Part shown: positions 13,395 through 60,756 of the stretch, piece after piece | Numbering within the stretch: position 1 is the stretch's first letter | Layout of the letters: every line of letters starts with the position of its first letter | NCBI GenBank assembly: GCA_028534125.1 | Contig: CM052816.1 | Location: 22,818,001-22,882,000 of the forward strand | Origin: Lama glama | Taxonomy: Eukaryota | Length of the DNA stretch: 64,000 nucleotides | Reading direction: 5' to 3' | Translations under genes and position numbers: made by a program | Notes under the pieces: model-generated | What the model saw: only the letters and a program-made list of their open reading frames with translations | What the model was told of the DNA's origin: nothing | Database searches by the model: none

Positions 13395-13894
13395 NNNNNN
13401 NNNNNNNNNNNNNNNNNNNNNNNNNNNNNNNNNNNNNNNNNNNNNNNNNNNNNNNNNNNNNNNNNNNNNNNNNNNNNNNNNNNNNNNNNNNNNNNNNNNN
13501 NNNNNNNNNNNNNNNNNNNNNNNNNNNNNNNNNNNNNNNNNNNNNNNNNNNNNNNNNNNNNNNNNNNNNNNNNNNNNNNNNNNNNNNNNNNNNNNNNNNN
13601 NNNNNNNNNNNNNNNNNNNNNNNNNNNNNNNNNNNNNNNNNNNNNNNNNNNNNNNNNNNNNNNNNNNNNNNNNNNNNNNNNNNNNNNNNNNNNNNNNNNN
13701 NNNNNNNNNNNNNNNNNNNNNNNNNNNNNNNNNNNNNNNNNNNNNNNNNNNNNNNNNNNNNNNNNNNNNNNNNNNNNNNNNNNNNNNNNNNNNNNNNNNN
13801 NNNNNNNNNNNNNNNNNNNNNNNNNNNNNNNNNNNNNNNNNNNNNNNNNNNNNNNNNNNNNNNNNNNNNNNNNNNNNNNNNNNNNNNNNNNNNN
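13395..13894. other. Assembly gap (500 N)
   Basis: Run of N. Confidence 1.
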
Positions 13895-15247: not shown

Positions 15248-16470
15248 ATAGGGGGAAATGTGTGTGTGATCTTTAGAAAGTGTTACTGACCAGAGCAGAA
15301 GTTAAATTAATGACCCTTTGAATCAGCTGCACAGCACTAACATCCATTCTTGAGTAATACACAGAGGCACAAAGTAAAGGTTTGACTTACCCGTAGGTTA
15401 GTCTTTGACCCTATCACTTAACAGCTCCACGTAAGTTTTCCTTATCTAAAATTACACAAAAATTATATATGCCGTTTTGAGAACACATTTGACAAATAAT
15501 AATGAAAACAAATAAAGATACTTCATACTACTACTAAACGAAAATGATGAAGCTGAGCTTCAAAGAGCATGTCAGAAAGACACAGAATGCAGTTTTCCCC
15601 ACATATTTCAATAAAAAATTCACAAAAGTATGTTCATTATTAGCTGAATAACATGTTCTAATCCACTGGCACTTTGGAGTGCCACAACCTTGTGATACTG
15701 ACTCTATCTACAGTTTAAAATCCACATTGTTATCCAATTTGGAACCAACAAAACCATAGTTTGTCCCGATGATATCTGAAACACCATCTAAAGCTGAGAG
15801 CAATGCTGGGCATGAATTCTGCCCTAAGGAATTATAATTTTGTCTTAACGTATGAACTACAACGTCTGTGCAAATATTCTCCTTAAAATCAATAATTATA
15901 TTTTAAAATATTCATCCTATTTGCAAAACTGTATTCCTTAAATTTCCATGAAGAAGTTGGATATTCACCCTGAGGACTCTCCTGAAAACTGCACTTCTAT
16001 ATGTGGCAGTTGTGAATTTCTTATTCAATATATGTGAAAAACAGAGAACTGTGGTTCAACTGCTTTGCCAAAAATCTATTTTTTCCACATTCTGTTTTCT
16101 TACTAAAAGAATTAGCCACGTGTATTTTAGAATTTTCTAATGGGTATTTTATTTATCAACTATTACCCTTTAACTACATTGAGAGAAATTTTCATAGACC
16201 AAGCTTCATGAAATTTTACTCTCAAGTAGACTGGAATAAACAAGAAACATATTCTCAGTATGTTTCTAAAATTTCCTTTAAAAAACTTTTCATACAATTC
16301 TAATAACATACTTTCTTTAAATGTTGGACTTCAGTACAGAAGACTGTACCTAAAAGAAAACTACAAGAAAACTTCTATTTTAATTGTTTATTGCCTTCTT
16401 CCCTTATATGCCACCCCAATCCAAACCCCAACGAAGCTAGCATTCGAAACCACTAAATGTTTTTTTTTAA
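15248..16470 (+). pseudogene. Cluster of fossil collagen exons (15248-15430, ~15667-15849, ~15930-16119, 16198-16257)
   Basis: In 15248-15430 most Gly slots are GGA/TGT/TGA/GAA/GCA/AGG/GTA/CGT, with a gtaagt donor at 15431. 15950 region reads (G)EVGYS PR GLS(G)KL. Confidence 0.7.
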
Positions 16471-17619
16471 TTCAGTATGTATTTATAAAACATGCATTCC
16501 TGCTTAAAGTCGATGTATTTGTAATGTAAATAAAAGATACTAGGATATATGAATTATTCTGGTTTGTTTTCTAACTTTACTCACATAAGCGTTTAGTTTT
16601 TGGGGGTGTTTTTTTGGTTGAATATTTATCAGGGTAAAAGTTAAATGCAAGTGTATGCACAGATCTTAAGAGTACGTTTTGATGAGTTTTGATAAAAGCA
16701 TTCATTTATATAGTGATTACCCCAATGAGGTACAGAATAATTACAGAAATTTCCCTTTTGACTCCTTTACTCAATATTCAACAATTATTTTGATTTCTAT
16801 CAACACTTCAAGGGAAAAATTTGCAAATCAAAACATACTGAAAATTATTTCTACAAGAATAAGTGAGGAATTGAAGGATGCAAGATTCCACAGTTTGTAA
16901 GATTTACTTATGAAATTCTTGTAATTGCACTTTGTGATATCTTGACTTGATGGAAGAATCTTTTGAAAAAACTTCTATTTTTAACTGGAAGAATTTACAT
17001 GAAGAGGCCTATGATTTGCATATGCATTTGCTGAAATATTCAGAAAGATTATAAAAAGAGAATTTATGAGTTTGGGCTTTAAAAATATTTATCAAAAAAG
17101 ATGTTCTTAAGGTGGCAACAAAGGCAGTACTTAGAAAAATACATGGGTTAAAATGTACACACATTTTAATATAAAAATTTTGAAAACTGAGAATACCATC
17201 CAGTTTGAAAAAATTATTGCTTGTACATTACCAGGTACCTCACCATGTGCCGAGATAATACTTTCTCCATTAAAAAAATTACGGTATTCAGAGAAGAGTT
17301 GATTTAAAATGTCAAATATTTCAAAATTACTAATAATAAAATTAAACCTTTAAAAGTATTAGAATTATTTGGGAAAATAAAAGAAAGAACAGTTTAAAAA
17401 AGTAAGTTCTTCAGAAAAATACAAGTGACACAGTATTAGAGACTATTAAAGTTTAAAAACTGATTAAAGTATGTGAACATATACCAAGAATGAATATTTA
17501 AATTTAATTAATTTAATTTAAACTACACTATCTTTATTGGTGGATAAGCAATGATTTAAACATTTTTTTGCTTTATCTGTCTGACTTATAAATTATATTA
17601 AGTAAAGTAAGTCAAAGAT

Positions 17620-20770: not shown

Positions 20771-21589
20771 ATTTTAATCACATCAATTATTTCAGCATCT
20801 CCTTTTACTCTCTAAAGTGCCCTGGTTTAGAAAATAAATTATGTAGTCACCATTATAAATAGGGACAACGTCCTTGAAACTTTTTATATGTGACATTCAC
20901 TCTCTAAAAAAGTAAAAGTGCAATCTCTAACAGCAGGTCATCTTTTTGTTCCTTATTTGGATGTTTCTTCTTTCCTAGAATGTTAGCTCTCTATGGAAGC
21001 ACAGACATTCTCTTTCTGGTTCACTGTTTTAGGCAGATCATTTAGAACAGTGCCAAAATGTAGAGACTGACCAACAAAATCTCACAAAATGGTCTTTTGT
21101 TCTGAAAAAGGTACATTTTCATCATAACTAATGGTACTTTACATTACCACTACACTTCTATAAAATTACTTCCATGAGATTTATATGAAATTATTAATGA
21201 AATAACTTTTTTTCAGTTATGGCACTAAAATGATTTTCACCATATATTGTTGCAATATTTGGAAAGCTATTTTTGTATTATGTGTTTACCACAGAAGAAA
21301 TATTTAAACTTGAAAAATTTTTAAATTCATTATTAAAAGTCTTTATTTAAATACAGCCAGAATCTCCCCTGAACAATGATGCTACAGTTTTAGTCTTTAG
21401 AACTGATTTTGTTACGGGATAGGTGCATTTGCATCACAACTAATGAGAATTTGCATTCCTACTACACTAATAATATTTTCTTCATGACTCCAATTTGAAT
21501 TAGAATTTATAGTGGTTTCCTACTTCTGGTCAAGTAAAATGTACTTATTGAAATAACTAGTTAATTATAAGTTCTTATTATTTTTATGA

Positions 21590-26559: not shown

Positions 26560-29370
26560 CTTCCCTGATAATTATAAATGACTGTAACAAGAAGTGTAGG
26601 AGCATGGACACCGGGAAAATACTGTTCCTGCCAGAAGCACAAGTCTGTCATCATGTACCAATTGAAAAAAACAAATAAAAGCATGATTTTATTGGGTAAA
26701 TATATAAGGATTCAAAAAAATCTGAAAAATATTGCTATGCTGAATAATGGTCAGGAAGTTTTTGTAGAAATTCCCAAAATAAGTTGTGAGAAAGTGTTAC
26801 CCTTCATGTCCCTTTTTTGGCTCGGGTTTGATTTCAGTTATTTTAATCAGTGTTTTTTCCAAGCCTAATGATGTTGTTTGCTACTCTCCCCACATTACAT
26901 CAAATAAATTTGAAAACCCTCTGAGACATTTAAATGGCAACTGCAGTAAATATTCATCATGTGGAATTAATAATGGCATCCTGAGATGTTTAGGTTTTTT
27001 TTGGTCTCTCTTTACCACAAGGAACTGTCATCCAATATGGTATTAAAAACAAGGAGGGTCATAGCTGGATTTTTTAACACACTCACAGGAGATAAAGCAG
27101 AATTGTGGGATTAACCTGGAGGCCAGGTCTAAATTACCCACTTACAAAGCTTAAAGTCTTATCAGGTATGTTGGAAAAAGCAGAGACCAGGTTGATTACT
27201 CAGACAATATTTCTAATACGAAATGAACTAAATATTATGGGCTAGCTGAAAAAATGATTATCTGCTTATTGATAATTTCTGATACAATAAAATTTCAAAC
27301 TGAATAGTTTTCTATTAATCCTAAGTATTTATCAGATTTGTCAGGTAAAAACAAAACTTCCCAGTCCAATGTTAATTATATACAGCAAATGACAGAGTTT
27401 TGCAGAATGATGTTATGTGATTTCTGATTTATGGGAAAAGCTTTATCTTGAGTGGCATTCAGTAAGCGTATCTTGTTTATTTGTTATTATCAAGTGTAAC
27501 AGAGAAAAACAAAGAAAAGGGGGCAAAACGTAATAAAATCAAACAGAAGACCTGAGGTCACTGAAATTTTTTAAAATGTGCTTTCCGGTTGGGTGGTGAT
27601 TATTTTGGTCTTTCCTACTTAAAATAAACTTTAAAAGCTAGAAAAACAACTAGATCTGCCAATTGTTGTGGTCACTTTTATTCCTTCCACTCTTCTCATT
27701 AACATATACTTGGAAAAAAAGTGACAGTAATTGTAGTTTCATGTGTGAAATTCATTTTACTGAACTGTTTGGAAATTTCTAAGTTTTAGGCTAGTGTGAT
27801 ACCAAAATTAATATATTTAAATTTTGTTTGTTTCTAGTAATCACTAGGAGATTTTTAAAATGTGTAATTTCCAAACGATTACAATAAATAGAAAAGAAAC
27901 AAGGAAGACCCAACGAGTTAGTGAAAGGCAGGAAAGATAAAAAAATAAAAAAAAACTTGCAAAACTTCAAAAAAACAACAATACAGGTCTTCACAAATCC
28001 ACAGTGTCAGTTAGACTGACTTTACAGGCTATTTGGGACACAATTCACATACTATCTCCTTTTCAGCCTTTCCTTAAAACTCCATTAAATATGGAGATTA
28101 AAGGGTCCAATGGTTCCATTTTCTTGGCAAACAGAAGAGTTTCCATTTTGTCAAACATTCGAAAATTAAATGTTGGTATTTTTCATACAATTATTGTCAA
28201 GAAACATTTCCTTAGGGATATCAAACTGGCTTCCACTGGAAGGGACTCAAAAAACACATTTGTCCACTTGTTCTGCCTCCAGAGACTGTTTCTCTTTGCA
28301 ACCTCTGTACCAACTGGCAGTGAAAACACATTTGAACAAATTAAAACTAACAATCTGTGCAACAGACACCCACTGTCTTTCAGAATAGGCCAAAGAAATG
28401 TCACTGGGGCCATTGCTACAATTTAAATTTAGACGCAGTTAGACTTTGACCCCTGCTTTATTTGCTGAAATTTGATTTGTTTGCTGCCATTTGTTGAAGA
28501 TTCTTCTACTTCACCAGAATGTTTATTCTAGAGGCACCAAAAGAACTGTTCTTATAAGAATATATGAATTTTCAGAGACTCTTTGTGAGCAAAGGGGTCC
28601 ATCTTTTCTCACCTTCTAATGATGTGTATGAGTGAATATACACAAATAATGGGGCCAAGCTAAAGTTTCCAAAGATATCTATGGAAAAATTAAAGTTTTA
28701 TAAAGAAATTAAAGTAGAAGTATTACCTCTACTAGTAACTGTAGGTTAATGTTTTCTAGAGAAAGCTGAATGAAACAACACAAAGGTAAAGTGAGATGAA
28801 GATCAAAACAGGTTTGTTTTTTTTTTTCTGTCTTGGTGAAAGAAAATAGTCCTATCTGACAACATACATTAGAATTTGTACAAGTCTTAGTTCATTTTGA
28901 TTAAGAAATTATCTGGATGAACTTTAAAGGCCCTAGGGAAGAACTGGAAGCTCAATACACATGAGGTGTTATTATAATCTACTGGCAGCTGGAAAGGAGA
29001 TTAGAAGTCAAGCTTAGAATAAGTCTGAGGGAAAAGTCTCACAATACAGGTGACCAGAAAGTGTAAAGGTAGAAGTAAAGAGTGTTCCTCAGTAGACTGA
29101 TAGAGAACACACAGAAGAGACTATTTATGAATAATGAAATTTAACAAGAAGTATGTAAGGAAAGAATATGCCCCTGGTGATCTAGCCATGAAATGAATCA
29201 CTGATGCTTTATTTTTTGTACAAATGAGCAAGAATAAGAACTCATAATATTAAATGGTACATCACCATAAGTACTTTCATTCACTAGTGATTATAGTACA
29301 CATTTTACAAGTGTCAAAATCAAGGATATCAAGAAACTTTTTGTTATTTACCCCAATGAATTCACTCTGT
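26560..29370 (+). pseudogene. Near-continuous fossil collagen coding block (~2.6 kb)
   Basis: GHR(G)NT(G)PA(G)ST(G)LS; GQE(G)FV(G)IP; exon 27089-27165 (G)DK(G)E..RPGLN; IKGSNGSI; GQR(G)VTGAI(G)TI; (G)FKGPR(G)EL(G)AQ. Confidence 0.85.
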
Positions 29371-29596: not shown

Positions 29597-29884
29597 CAAT
29601 GGAATACTACTCAGTGATAAAAAAAGAATAAAATAATACCATTTGCAGCAACATGGATGGACCTGGAGATCATCATTCGAAATGAAGTAAGCCAGAAAAA
29701 GAAAAATACCATATGATAACATGTATATGTGGAATCTTAGAAAGGAAGGTAGGAAGGGAGGAAGGCAGGCAGGCAGGCAGGCAGAAAGAAAGGAAGGAAG
29801 GAAGGAAGGAAGGAAGGAAGGAAGGAAGGAAGGAAGGGAGAAAGAAAGAGAGAGAGAGAGAAAGAGAGAGAGAGAAAGAGAGAA

Positions 29885-29931
<47 letters not shown>

Positions 29932-29944
29932 AAGAAAGAAAGAG

Positions 29945-30003
<59 letters not shown>

Positions 30004-30371
30004 AAAGAAAGAGAAAGAAACAAGACACTAGTGAACTCATCTACAAAACAGAAATAGACCTACAGACATAGCAAACAATTTTATGGTTACAGGGGTAAAG
30101 ATGGTGGGAAGGGACAAATTTGGGAGTTTGAGATTTGCAAAGGTTAACCACTATATATAAAATAGATAAAAAACAAATTTCTTCTCTATAGCACAGGAAA
30201 CTATATTCACTATCTTGTAAAAACCTATAATGATATAGATTATGAAAACGAATATGTGTGTGTATATATATATATGTATATATATACACACATATATATA
30301 TGAATGACTGGGACATAATGCTGTATACCAGAAACTGACACATTGTAACTGACCATACTTCAATTAAAAAA
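29597..30371 (+). mobile_element. Young L1 3' end with an internal purine microsatellite
   Basis: Perfect 16-bp TSD aaaactatgtaaaata (29581-96 / 30372-87). Confidence 0.92.
29741..30020 (+). repeat. Compound (GGCA)(GGAA)(GA)(GAAA)n microsatellite
   Basis: Read directly from the sequence. Confidence 0.97.
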
Positions 30372-34962: not shown

Positions 34963-37149
34963 AGATATTTTCATTTTATACTATTATCAAGAATATTCAA
35001 ATGATCTTTTGGACAGAATAATGAAAAGCTAATTACATGGCAAATTAGAGTGCTTTTTTTCTCATAATTTTACTGGTCACTTATATGAATGCTGTAAATT
35101 AATCAAATTTCCTGGGCTCTAGCAGTATATCAGAATAAAACTGCCTAGAGTATTCTTTCTAGAGAGACCATTACATTGCAGGACCATTAGATTAACAATT
35201 TCATTGTGTGAGAGGAAAGAGAAAGTCACTTAATTTATAAAAGTGATAAATTACTTCAATTCAAAATTGAATTAATCAGTAAGTACATATTTTAGGAAGA
35301 ATAAAGTTCAAATCTTCAAAAGACAGAGCTTCTTGTAAAAACAAGACTGTCCATTATTTTCAATTTAATGAAACATCAAATATTATCAATAGCAGAATAT
35401 TTGTTAAATTCATATTCTTTTTAAAATAGTTTTAGAAAGCAACTAGATATTAAAACTCCAATATATCTATTTTCTTTTTTACTACTCCACTAAAAATAAC
35501 TAGCAAAAGACACATTTGTTTGACTTTTAGACAATGTGGATAGGAAAACACAATGATCAGGAATTTCCAAAAACACATTCGGAAAAAAAAAAAGTTTTCC
35601 CCTTTAACAAAATTAATGAACACATTCACTGGAACTGTGCCAAAGCTTCACAAACTGTTTACTATTTAAAGTTGCTAGCTGGAGTTTCTGGCAGGTTATT
35701 CCAAACATGAACTTCATCTTACTTGTATCTGGAGCTGTTACTAATGAACCTGATAAACTTGAGGCCACGTACTCAACTGTGCCCCATGTTCTCCCCCATG
35801 ACTTGACTGGTGGCACAAAGACAAGAGATGTGAACAGCTGCATGCTGAATCCAAGATTTAGAGAGCAGAAAAGAAGGGATCAGCCAAGTGCTCATCTCCC
35901 TGGGAGCACTGTGAAGTTCCTGAACTTGCACAGCTTAATTAGACCATACACACTCAATTAGAAAATAATTAAATTAGTTCATGGTTTTTTGGAAGGTGTT
36001 TTTTGTTTTTTGTTTTTTTCACATTGATCCCAGTTGCTCCTCAGATGAAGTGACTACATATGGCAACAGCGTCATGAGAGGCCTGGCTTATTGCAGGAAT
36101 CAGGAAATGAAGGAATTTTTCCCAAAGGAGGCACCTAAAAAGTATTTTTAATAATACAGCCCTAGGACAAATCTTGTTATGGCATCTTCCCAGGTGCCCA
36201 GTTTGCTAGCACACCTCCCTTCCCAATGAGTATTCTATTTCCTCAGATTCCCTCCTCACCTACTTAGTTGGCTGCCTCTGTCTATTACTTTGTGCTATCA
36301 ATAAATTTTTCCTAAGGTGTTTATTACAGTAGACCTGGTAAGGAAATAACCTATACAGGAAGTCATCTGATTTTTCCACTGAAAAAAGCCTGTCGTTCAG
36401 AGCTGCCCAAGAGGCTTGTGCTACCTCCAAAACTGGGTCAGCTCAGGCCACTTGTCTTTCTGAGAGCTGGTTTTAGTGTAACTAACTGCTACCTTCCTCT
36501 TGATCACAAAAGAGAAAGTCTCCTTTCTCCTAGTCACGCAGAACAAAATAAATGAACTGTATTACCACTGAATTTTTATGAGCCCACTAACAGCCTTATT
36601 CCTGTGTAAGGAGGAAATTCTCCACCTACTTTGGCAATCCACTGCACTAACCCACAGCATTCCTTAGAATGATAGTCACTGCTCTCAACAATCACTGAAG
36701 CTAAATTTGGAAATTCATTCATTTGCCTAGATTTCTTTGGGTTGTTTCAGCAACTCTGGAGCAGTGAAGACGGTGATTTAGGATTTTAACATAACTGTGC
36801 TATGGGAAATAACACAGGTGACCTAGACTACATTAAATTTACTGCTTCGGTTCTACTGGAATATAGAATGGTTGTCTGCACTACAGTACAAACACTCACA
36901 CCGGCACATCTGTGTAGGTAATGGAGTTGAGTTATAATGGGTTCTCATGACAAGTGGCACATTTTTAATCTTAAACTATTTAAAAAAATTTTTTTTCTAG
37001 ACCAGTTTACTGAAGAAAGTGGAACAAGTTTAGCTCATATCTTATTCTACTGATATTAAGAGCATAAATTATAGAACATTAATTCAGGCTAAGGAAAATA
37101 ATTAGATTCAGTATGAGGAATTAAAGTGGTAAATATTTTTAGTTTTTAA

Positions 37150-39771: not shown

Positions 39772-40097
39772 TCACAGAGCAGTTTTTCAGAAATATACTG
39801 CATGGTCAACTTTCTACCAGCTTTATATTCCATTCTAGAATCTAATTGCCAAAAGATTTGTAACATCCACTTCAGCCATAATACTCTATTCTCTCTTACC
39901 AACTTTGTATATGACTCCAACATAGAGCCAACAACACTAAGTTATGAATATTTTTTTGTTCCATTGGACTGTGAACTACTGGAAGGAAGAGAATGTTTTT
40001 ATTCATTTTTCTATTCCCCGTGTCTAAGCGAGTGCCTGCAAGACACACTCATATCACTCTAGGGGAGCACCCAGGCAACCTTTTAGTACCTTATGCA

Positions 40098-41934
40098 TGG
40101 GGTGACCATATAATCCTCCTCCACACAAGGAAAGTTTTCACAGTCAAAAGCAGCACTAAAATAATTTTATATAATTTCTAAATTATTTTGCAGCCAGATA
40201 AATTACTTTTATAAAATAATGGTTAAGAAAAAAAACCCTAAAATTTATTTTTTAGTGTTTTATTATCATATTTAGATGCTGAAGAATCGCAGGCTTTCTA
40301 GATTTCAATTCCCTGTTTTTATGACATGGCTTCATTAGGAAACAATTTGAAGCCCAGCTACTATACACATAACGTTGCTTGTCTATTTTACCTTTTCTGC
40401 TTCTGTGTAGACTGGCAGTGCATTTAAGCTTACTTGAATGCATTATGTACCTCAACCAATTTCAAGTTCATTTCTGCTCCATAAATGCTTCAATTTATTA
40501 ATAACACTGTTTTTGTTTGTTTTACTGCGATGTTCTGAACTACCAAAATCTGTATTCATATTATCAGCACAAAAGAAATTCTTTTAACTTCATTTTAACT
40601 ACTGAGTAAACTAATATCCTTTTCAATAATGTCAATTTTGACAGTGTTTAACTTCTGAAAGCTTTACTTTCTTCTATGAATTGTATTTTAAAAAATGGAA
40701 TCGTACTAGAATTAACTACTTTCAATTTCAAGCAACTGATAACACTGACATAAAACTGACGTCACTGACCAATTCCCCATTTGCTAATGAATAGCCATCA
40801 ATTCACTGTATGTACATACACAAGAAAATCTGAAGTCATAATGAGCAAAATTAATATTGATGAAGAAGAGTACTGAATCTCAAAGAAAAGTCGTGTTTCT
40901 GGAATGATACACAAAATGACCTTTGTCGTTACATGTGTTAAATCATTGTCGTTGCTCACAGTCCTAAAATAACTGATGCGTTTTAAAATTGCTAAGCTTA
41001 AGCAGATGTGTTCTCTGGTCTTTATAGTCAGTTTTATCGCTATTGTATCCCTGCTGGATGCTAAATGTCGACAAACATTTTAAGTTAAACTTCTTATATC
41101 AAAACTAACAAAAATGATACATTCAAGTTTATCATTAAATATGTGCTTTTGTTTTTAAACATATTGTTGTCAAGTGATTTAATTCAAAAATGAAAACATT
41201 ACAAAACAAGAAAATAGTTGTAGAATCACTGCATAGAATAAGTGGCCAAATCACTGCAGCAAGAAGACACGGCAGGACCGCTGAGTCTCTATTTCACCTA
41301 GGCCGGCCCCTGACTCCCGTGGTTACCCCGAGCCTGCCCGCGGCTGGCCCTGTAGCTCCTTACCTCTAATAGGCCGAGCAGAAAAAACAGTGTCAGATAC
41401 TCTCCTCGCCAATGTCTGGAGGCGTCTTAAGGAAAATGAAGACAGAACTACAAATCCAAAGTTGCGCACATTTCCTTGAAGACGCCCGTGCCGTGCGGGG
41501 AGCTGAATCTCGAGCATCGCTAGCTCCACGCTCAGGCAGCGTCTGCGAACTCGCCCGGCCGAGGAAGGGCCGTGTCCCACAGGCAGAGGACACACGGACA
41601 AGCACTCCGCCGACTGCCAGAGAGTGACACGAACGCAGCCGCGAAGACCACGTAAAACCGTACAGTCCACGGTAGTTTGAATAGGATAAACAAATAAGTG
41701 AATGAAGCGCTGAATTACTAGGAAACTGTTTTTTATTTTTTCTTTTTTGGAGAGGGTGCGCTGAGAGAAACTGAGCGCCAGGAGTGGCTCAGAGAACAAC
41801 GGAACCAGGCCTGAGGCGCAGCAGCTGAATCCTGTTCTCGCGCGATCTCGGGAGGCCAATAGGTGCCGGCAGGTGAGTCGGAGGATGAATCAGAATATCC
41901 TCAAACCCTAACCCCAGACATTACATTGTCACCA
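40098..41934 (-). mobile_element. hAT (Blackjack-like) DNA transposon, internally deleted
   Basis: Terminal inverted repeats ggtgaccat (40101) and attgtcacc (41925-41933). Minus-strand transposase remnants: ATG at 41162, CLSTFSIQQG (41077-41048), FVYHS/KHDFSLR (40916-40878). Left end matches the reverse complement of 20790-20851. Confidence 0.75.
41270..41880. promoter_or_regulatory. CpG island / putative promoter, possibly bidirectional
   Basis: The only CpG-dense stretch in the window. TCTCGCGCGA (1 mismatch to the TCTCGCGAGA BANP motif) at 41836; CCAAT at 41856; minus-strand donor GAG|GTAAGG at 41364/41363; plus-strand donor CAG|GTGAGT at 41872/41873. Confidence 0.7.
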
Positions 41935-42614
41935 GGGCCTGGAGGTCTGACCAGTGACAGGGGAACACACCCTGGCCCAAATACTGTGTATGGGAAGAAC
42001 CACCGAAGCCAGAATGGGGTTGGGTTTAGGGGTGGGGACTGAACTGCGCATGCTCAAGCTGAAAAAGTAAAGCCTTCTGGGAGCTGGCAGGGCCCAGAGC
42101 AGGGACCAGGGCCTCTTGCACAGAATCCTGGAGTCCCCAGTCTGACATATGCATAGGTCCAAAGCCTCAGCACCCTCAGTGTTGCATTTTATTTGCATAT
42201 TTTGGGGCCAGTTCCTCCTAGATGCAAGGTACCCAAAATTTGTAACAGAAACCATCTCTGCTTGTTCCTCAGGCATGTGTCTAGAGGAGCTGCCTCAGAT
42301 CTCTGCTCTCTGGTTCCTAACCTGCCCATCTGTCAGCACTCTAAGGTGGGGAGCTGGCTCCTTCACTCAATCCCTTCCATCAGGAAATATTCCCTCTCGT
42401 GGAATACCATAGCAGATACTATGGTCCAGGGCCTGGTTGGATGGGTAGAGTGTGGAGGTTCCCAGGAAGGACTTGAAAGCAAGAAAAAAGGACAAAGATT
42501 CCTTCTTTCATTCAAAGGCAATAATCTAAGCCACTGGATGAGTGACGGTCCTGCACTGCCATGACCACCTTTACTCTCCACTTTCTCATCTGCAGAGTAT
42601 AAGAATTAGACTAA

Positions 42615-49140: not shown

Positions 49141-49532
49141 TATTTAACAAATTAATAAAGATCGCTTCTCGGCCTTTTGGCTAAGATCAAGTGGAAAAAA
49201 TTAATACAGAGAAACCTCAATTAAACAGAGTTGGGAGAGCAGAGGACAGTACTCCCATACCTTGCAACAACAGCAGAGCCCAATAAGGAGAAAGAAGAGT
49301 CTTCTTTCTTCCTGGCAGTGATTCAGCCAATGAAAAGCCATGGATTGTTTGTTTACTTTAGTCCTCCCAACTGCCTTTTCCCCTCTTTAAGGGTTCTCAT
49401 TCCCTTGCTGGGGAGAGAACTTGCACATGACTCACCATGATTACAGACCCCAAATTGCAATTCTCTGCTGAACCCAAATAAACCAATCTTTGCTGGAAAA
49501 ATTCCTGACAATCTATTTGTTTCAGATCAACA
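49141..49532 (+). mobile_element. ERV1-type solo LTR nested in a MER21-like LTR
   Basis: 4-bp TSD aaat (49137-40 / 49533-36); ends ..aaca; AATAAA near 49477; MER21-like sequence resumes on both sides. Confidence 0.7.
49161..49193 (+). pseudogene. RNU2: U2 snRNA 5' fragment (3'-truncated retro-copy)
   Basis: ATCGCTTCTCGGCCTTTTGGCTAAGATCAAGTG equals U2 nt 1-33; flanking repeats aaattaataaag (49149-49160) and aaattaatacag (49198-49209). Confidence 0.95.
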
Positions 49533-60030: not shown

Positions 60031-60756
60031 CCGGAGGCCATAGAATAGGCATGGGCGATATAGTAAAGATGCAGAAGCATTTTAGGCAATAAGTAGCATT
60101 CGTTCAGCATTTGTCATTTGGTCATATAACAGAATTACTAAATCAAAATTATGGAAACCACGTAACCAGTATGCTTTAGGCTGATGACTTCATATCTAAA
60201 ATAACGTTTCAAGTCCCATGCTGTATTTCAAAAGGGCTATTTTAAAAAAGACAGAGAAGCAGTTGTCCAGAAGTAAGCATTTGATACCCATGACATATCT
60301 GGAATACTTGAAATAAGCAAGGAAGATTTAACTAGAAATAATTGTTTTCTGAAAAGGATCGAAGAAAATAACAACTGCCATGTAAAAGCACTGGTCTATA
60401 CCCGTTGCTTCTCCATATAGGAGAACTTGGCATTGAAATCACACTGATGTATACATCTGGGTCCTAGATAATGACAGCAACAACTGAAAGGTCAGAAGAT
60501 GTGGTAGCATAATTAGACCTGTACACCTTTGGGCAAGAATTGGGTAACATGTCAGAACACTTTGAAAGAGATTCTTTTTACAGATGAGCAATTTATATCA
60601 CTCTAGGGGTTGCCCTAGTGACCATGACCACTCATGCACCCAACATTAACCTACTGAATATCAATATTAAGATAAGTGTGGTAAAATGTTAGGGAAATAA
60701 ACATGTTATTCAATCTCCCCAACAGAAAATGTCTTAATCTAACAGAGGAGAGAAAC

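Follow-up and report, generated by a model that had tools for sequence, protein, structure and literature searches.

Why does a single CpG island stand in 64 kb of otherwise AT-rich llama DNA, and does it belong to the decayed transposon beside it or to the host? Here we report that this island, in a window of 64,000 nucleotides (the whole stretch of Lama glama DNA analysed), has the features of an orphan two-way promoter. Its most likely source, which we put forward tentatively and at somewhat less than even confidence, is the 5' end of a Blackjack-type hAT fossil. If the gene order of human chromosome 5 applies, as we presume, the window falls in the gap that separates HINT1 from CHSY3. HINT1 and CHSY3 flank a gap at 5q23.3, as stated in part of PMC4741898.

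The island measures 611 bp at a GC content of 0.56 and an observed-to-expected CpG ratio (o/e) of 0.94, above the usual thresholds of 200 bp, 50% GC and an o/e of 0.6. Over the 64-kb window as a whole the GC content is 0.34 and the CpG o/e 0.17; the background rate predicts 8.7 CpG where the island has 45 (P ~4e-18), and 200-bp windows with a GC content of at least 0.5 and an o/e of at least 0.6 are confined to 41180-41958. The preliminary description had called this the only CpG-rich stretch, and the counts bear it out, the richest 611-bp window elsewhere holding 11 CpG.

CpGs persist over evolutionary time only where the germline leaves them unmethylated, and the TpG and CpA signature of CpG decay is absent from the island (Table 1). 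That its CpGs persist is well supported by the sequence, as is its promoter-like character; that it would be unmethylated in the germline, as was proposed earlier, has indirect support from the missing decay. On the transposase side, 40751-41250 retains 7 CpG in 500 bp (equalled by 2 of 689 GC-matched windows) and has a TpG+CpA o/e of 1.46 (equalled by 3 of 339), a pattern that fits formerly CpG-rich foreign DNA, since decayed, adjoining a patch that would have been kept unmethylated. On the other side, the last CpG-rich position is 41879, 41 bp short of the candidate right inverted end (TIR), and the next 215 bp, at a GC content of 0.57, hold 2 CpG where the island rate predicts 15 (P ~4e-5). 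The GC content of 41936-42435 (0.528) exceeds that of all 606 outside windows (best 0.522) at a CpG o/e of 0.09, and the GC-rich domain, 41260-42560, crosses the proposed end of the element and continues for about 600 bp beyond it.

Two-way use of the island is suggested by its splice donors, which were scored with matrices approximated from general knowledge. The plus-strand donor after 41872 ranks first among the 6424 GT sites in the window and points right, out of the island; the minus-strand donor at 41364, present as earlier claimed, scores 11.2 bits, ranks 7th of the 6424 and points left. They stand at opposite edges of the island, both facing outward, with the ZNF143-like core between them, and comparably strong donors appear on both strands in 0.55% of island shuffles. 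Such an arrangement would suit a divergent promoter whose two first exons are both spliced; it is because of the stronger plus-strand donor, missed earlier, that the element looks bidirectional. A minus-strand acceptor at 41253 (9.4 bits) would close a 110-nt GT-AG intron with the donor at 41364 and sits 91 nt ahead of the transposase ATG, two further ATG triplets lying within those 91 nt. Elsewhere on the minus strand, 17244-17347 and 28613-28678 are open candidate exons with donors of 9.0 and 10.4 bits, possible downstream exons of a leftward RNA; a Pfam search with 17244-17347 gave no match.

The island also carries promoter-like motifs. The sequence TCTCGCGCGA at 41836 occurs once in the window and differs at one position from the BANP motif TCTCGCGAGA, as published in PMC10206803 (in part). 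The preliminary description had listed this BANP-like site and a CCAAT box, and both are present, though the CCAAT at 41856 fails the strict NF-Y pattern and agrees with a relaxed one; a BANP-like match of 9/10 also arises in 3.9% of 2000 island shuffles, and the relaxed NF-Y pattern in 9% of shuffles. What we take to be a ZNF143/THAP11-type core at 41447 is the sole copy in the window and arises in 0.2% of 2000 island shuffles, and what is presumably an NRF1-like half site lies at 42045-42053, outside the proposed element end. The four tested motifs occur jointly in 0 of 2000 island shuffles, a figure that overstates the case, the motifs having been picked after the sequence was viewed. By these counts the predicted ZNF143-like core and plus-strand donor are stronger features than those listed earlier. 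MYB sites in the island comprise one YAACKG and one AACCGT, and YAACKG is seen 84 times across the window where 90.5 are expected; the A-MYB site cluster that serves as the criterion for a pachytene piRNA promoter is absent from the island, with no enrichment in the window.

Table 1. Coordinates of observed and predicted features at the island and the adjoining element, in window positions.
Feature	Position	Strand	Basis
Left TIR, hAT-like (3' end relative to transposase)	40098..40114	+	Sequence; Blackjack label presumed
Transposase-like remnant, frameshifted, internally deleted	40337..41162	-	Three-frame translation; ATG 41162
Candidate 110-nt GT-AG intron	41254..41363	-	Predicted donor 41364 and acceptor 41253
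CpG island	41270..41880		45 CpG, o/e 0.94, TpG/CpA o/e 0.94
ZNF143/THAP11-type promoter core	41447..41457	+	Presumed motif; one copy in window
BANP-like site	41836..41845	+	9/10 against published motif
CCAAT box, imperfect NF-Y context	41854..41862	+	Pattern match
Plus-strand splice donor	41870..41878	+	12.6 bits, top donor of window; predicted
Candidate right TIR	41920..41933	-	12/14; without target-site duplication
GC-rich, CpG-poor flank past proposed end	41936..42560		GC and CpG counts; contains NRF1-like half site
Candidate second exon of rightward transcript	42273..42345	+	Acceptor 11.6, donor 9.3 bits; prediction only

From what is computed here, namely the island, its missing CpG decay, the motifs and the two strong outward donors, we infer germline hypomethylation, factor binding, initiation, splicing and an origin as follows. 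The fossil would be a 1.84-kb internally deleted Blackjack-type hAT running from 40098 to about 41936, with the island as its 5' end. ZNF143-, BANP- and NF-Y-type factors hold such CpG islands open, and they would do so here, with RNA polymerase II starting in both directions from within the island. Leftward, an RNA would run from the donor at 41364 through the acceptor at 41253 into the dead transposase, or splice further left; rightward, an RNA would splice from the donor at 41872 to the next acceptor, at 42273. Both RNAs would be non-coding, and no collagen is needed.

For 40000-42300, 22 sequencing runs were listed, 16 of them with some of the stretch and 5 recorded as RNA; six RNA rows, sharing 0.08-0.11, and six rows of unindexed raw reads were set aside. 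The six best-sharing runs contain 0.81-0.87 of the words of 40000-42300; the share is 0.32-0.34 in four RNA-seq runs, which belong to a single study and carry the label reproductive system. This last share might weakly suggest that about 0.9 kb is transcribed; it fits equally well the whole stretch in a relative diverged by 2-3%, and it could come from DNA or pre-mRNA. A 188-aa open reading frame in the island was considered as a conserved protein and rejected: its one near-identical relative (P0001) shifts frame after 39 residues, inside the island. In the comparison with P0001, one of four amino-acid-visible changes is a CpG transition, a count that suits 1-fold and 10-fold CpG rates alike.

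The transposon remnant was read by eye from a three-frame translation. The minus-strand frames of 40337-41162 contain short pieces that we take to be hAT-like, from N-terminal finger and C-terminal dimerisation regions with the middle missing; the assignment of this copy to BLACKJACK is likewise our presumption. The preliminary description had named a decayed hAT transposase with its ATG at 41162 on the minus strand. The ATG is present and the frameshifted remnant stands by eye, but the database searches turned up no relative. Pfam searches of 9 and 12 frame pieces gave no match to a transposase, its BED-type finger or its hAT dimerisation domain, and no relative was found in a HMMER library of 1.84 billion representatives, two word-index protein searches, the ESM Atlas and viral contigs, or the PDB (a lone match at E=1.5 was disregarded); single frames from a frameshifted remnant have little power in such searches. 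A Pfam match at 0.073 to MRI, in an island frame, was taken as chance.

Read as an inverted repeat, 41920-41933 and 40101-40114 agree in 12 of 14 bases, so the right TIR that had been claimed at 41925-41933 has a candidate core, but about 10% of controls equal it: scored without a pre-picked 14-mer, it is matched in 21 of 200 shuffles and in 5 of 42 real control segments. Taken as a fixed 14-mer, the core has 0.54 expected matches per window, and one other was found, at 20838. A second TIR-like 11-mer at 41320 (9/11) would place most of the island outside the element. The best candidate for an 8-bp target-site duplication agrees at 5 of 8 positions over 49 end combinations; this does not exclude hAT membership, since decay could have erased the duplication. 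As described in part of PMC3942097, hAT elements have TIRs of 10-25 bp, 8-bp duplications and a size range of 2.5-5 kb. Pattern scans for other copies of the element end returned 57 loci (21 viral, 24 from metagenomes, 12 from genomes); beyond the core used as the pattern none of them matches the window, and all were dismissed as chance matches. A two-ended element pattern gave 0 matches, an Rfam search gave 0 matches, and an inverted repeat spanning the right end shows no folding advantage over shuffled sequence (z -0.29). An identical 15-mer occurs at 40051-40065 and 60595-60609, with looser similarity beyond; its first copy directly flanks the left end of the element, which may therefore sit in a small older repeat.

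Because the TIR score recurs in about a tenth of controls, no duplication was found and GC-rich DNA continues past the TIR, we put the chance that the island lies inside the element, as the transposon's own promoter, at about even, or slightly better, against that of a host island. The earlier claim of an element's own promoter thus keeps a suggestive TIR in its favour, against the missing duplication and a GC-rich domain that crosses the proposed end. It is quite possible that the island is a host orphan promoter that predates the transposon or arose separately from it, and that what adjoins it is a Blackjack fragment truncated at its 5' end (40098 to about 41250-41330); the right TIR would then be a chance match, and the leftward RNA would merely splice into the fragment. 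The weaknesses of the right end just named all suit such a host origin, as does the NRF1-like site outside that end, and the motif set and outward donors are of a kind we presume typical of ordinary vertebrate promoters. The prior for a TE promoter is also low, because more than 93% of human TE-derived start sites are without CpG islands (PMC12963367, in part). What speaks for the transposon is the abruptness with which CpG richness ends, within 41 bp of the candidate TIR, while the equally GC-rich flank is CpG-poor. A host island also has to accommodate an oriented 12/14 match 773 bp before the ATG, which would leave a plausible 5' region for a hAT of the size given in part of PMC3942097.

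Two further readings concern what the island does. It could be unmethylated and unproductive, as a poised enhancer or a GC peak of biased gene conversion, its donors being leftovers or chance; the GC-rich halo around it is consistent with this, but two top-ranked outward donors and a ZNF143-like core rare in shuffles, together with the RNA runs of one study that contain part of 40000-42300, make it quite unlikely. Very unlikely, in our judgement, is that it is the promoter and first intron of a once-domesticated, later dead transposase gene, or a two-way testis promoter of piRNA precursors. The exon-intron-ATG layout, the reproductive-system label of the best RNA runs and the presumed gene-desert setting agree with one or other of these, whereas the frame is heavily decayed and deleted with no homologs found, and the island has a single YAACKG site in a window without MYB enrichment.

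The preliminary description had placed the element in a dead collagen, with collagen codons resuming at 41935 and the island driving a transcript antisense to the fossil gene. That reading arose because 41935 begins the best plus-strand Gly-X-Y stretch, but it scores 17.2, where shuffles peak at 14.5-17.1 and the minus strand reaches 17.8. Adding an acceptor term gives the plus strand a modest lead, with top scores of 19.4, 19.1 and 18.5 where shuffles peak at 15.0-18.5; the best minus-strand score is 21.3, and several of the plus-strand matches fall inside the island. Acceptor-anchored Gly-X-Y counts (17 plus versus 16 minus) are above shuffles on both strands, partly at L1 tails, and one of four settings beats all 40 shuffles, equally on both strands. 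The Gly-X-Y signal is not strand-specific, the minus strand scoring as high and top scores lying near the shuffle maxima, and the claim of a collagen around the element is not supported. None of 16 candidate collagen exons matches Pfam, and the 41935 stretch has no match in the PDB. The collagen matrices are crude, so that a very old remnant could fall below them, and the Pfam search for non-collagenous domains covered chosen pieces; judged by a strand-specific series of Gly-X-Y exons, a collagen unitary pseudogene is not confirmed.

Relative to a host gene, L1 elements tend towards antisense orientation, and of 13 L1 pieces whose strand could be assigned (window 1-59000), 11 are plus-strand, with some to either side of the island (two-sided binomial ~0.02, for pieces that may not be independent). 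This is weak evidence for minus-strand transcription and against a plus-strand gene of long standing, and the antisense claim is unsupported on this count as well as for want of a strand-specific collagen signal. The same bias hints that a long transcription unit on the minus strand may cross the window. Several other observations concern the surrounding DNA. On the minus strand, 35613-35879 holds an 88-aa stop-free frame of protein-like look (no Pfam, PDB or Atlas match), and 15560-16040, 26700-27040 and 27990-28420 look by eye like decayed coding DNA, from an old transposon or from exons of a lost gene, and gave no useful match in Pfam. A short piece at ~49165-49197, below the Rfam threshold, resembles what we take to be the 5' end of U2 snRNA. 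The window also contains an assembly gap of 500 N at 13395-13894 and a long GA-rich simple repeat within an L1 tail at ~29740-30020.

Among known systems, the locus is like the bidirectional CpG-island promoters that are presumably bound by ZNF143, BANP and NF-Y in its motif set, CpG richness and predicted divergent first-exon donors; unlike at those promoters, a protein-coding gene is not evident on either side. It also presumably resembles BLACKJACK in a short inverted end beginning GGTGACCA and in a minus-strand remnant with presumably hAT-like N- and C-terminal pieces. Unlike BLACKJACK, it is 1.84 kb long, has lost most of the transposase, lacks a duplication, has one uncertain end and carries a CpG island. 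BLACKJACK is an autonomous hAT fossil family of placental mammals, with hAT-Blackjack MITEs such as MER81, as described in parts of PMC5753468 and PMC9409130.

Most TE-derived promoters are of retroelement origin and CpG-poor, DNA transposons contribute little to human TE-derived start sites, and older TE families show broad, dispersed initiation, according to the same part of PMC12963367; its seven supplementary files, as far as they are accessible, contain 0 occurrences of BLACKJACK. Like TE-derived start sites, the locus would have an old element as its promoter source; unlike most of them, it has a CpG island and would derive from a DNA transposon. Hezroni et al. 2017 (PMC5577775, in part) depict in Fig. 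7b a new TE-derived promoter that reuses exons of a lost gene, and give 34% of lncRNAs that are fossils of lost genes as having a TE-overlapping start site. That route is the scenario of the preliminary description; no lost gene is demonstrable at this locus, and the accessible content of four supplementary files of the same paper gave 0 matches to collagen terms, HINT1, CHSY3, LYRM7 or CDC42SE2.

TE-derived promoters and orphan islands are already known as kinds, and the human orthologue of this one may already be annotated. The human lncRNA CTB-1I21.1, which we had presumed to be its counterpart, proved wrong, being placed at chr5:136.1 Mb in the part of the listing available. The openly accessible literature that was searched holds no report of this locus and describes no CpG-island promoter derived from BLACKJACK.

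With a host origin, the locus would be an ordinary promoter of an intergenic lncRNA, next to a repeat. If the island is transposon-derived, it would be an uncommon and testable case of an orphan CpG island originating from an ancient DNA transposon, and a transposon promoter whose other copies have decayed would be preserved in it. A bolder version, that an extinct Blackjack hAT left its native promoter, complete and with the 5' intron, as a living two-way island common to placental mammals, seems to us rather doubtful. If true, the island would document the way in which a cut-and-paste element evaded methylation in the germline by means of host ZNF143, BANP and NF-Y sites, and the native Blackjack promoter would have seeded an orphan island from which spliced RNAs run both into the dead transposase and over a gene desert.
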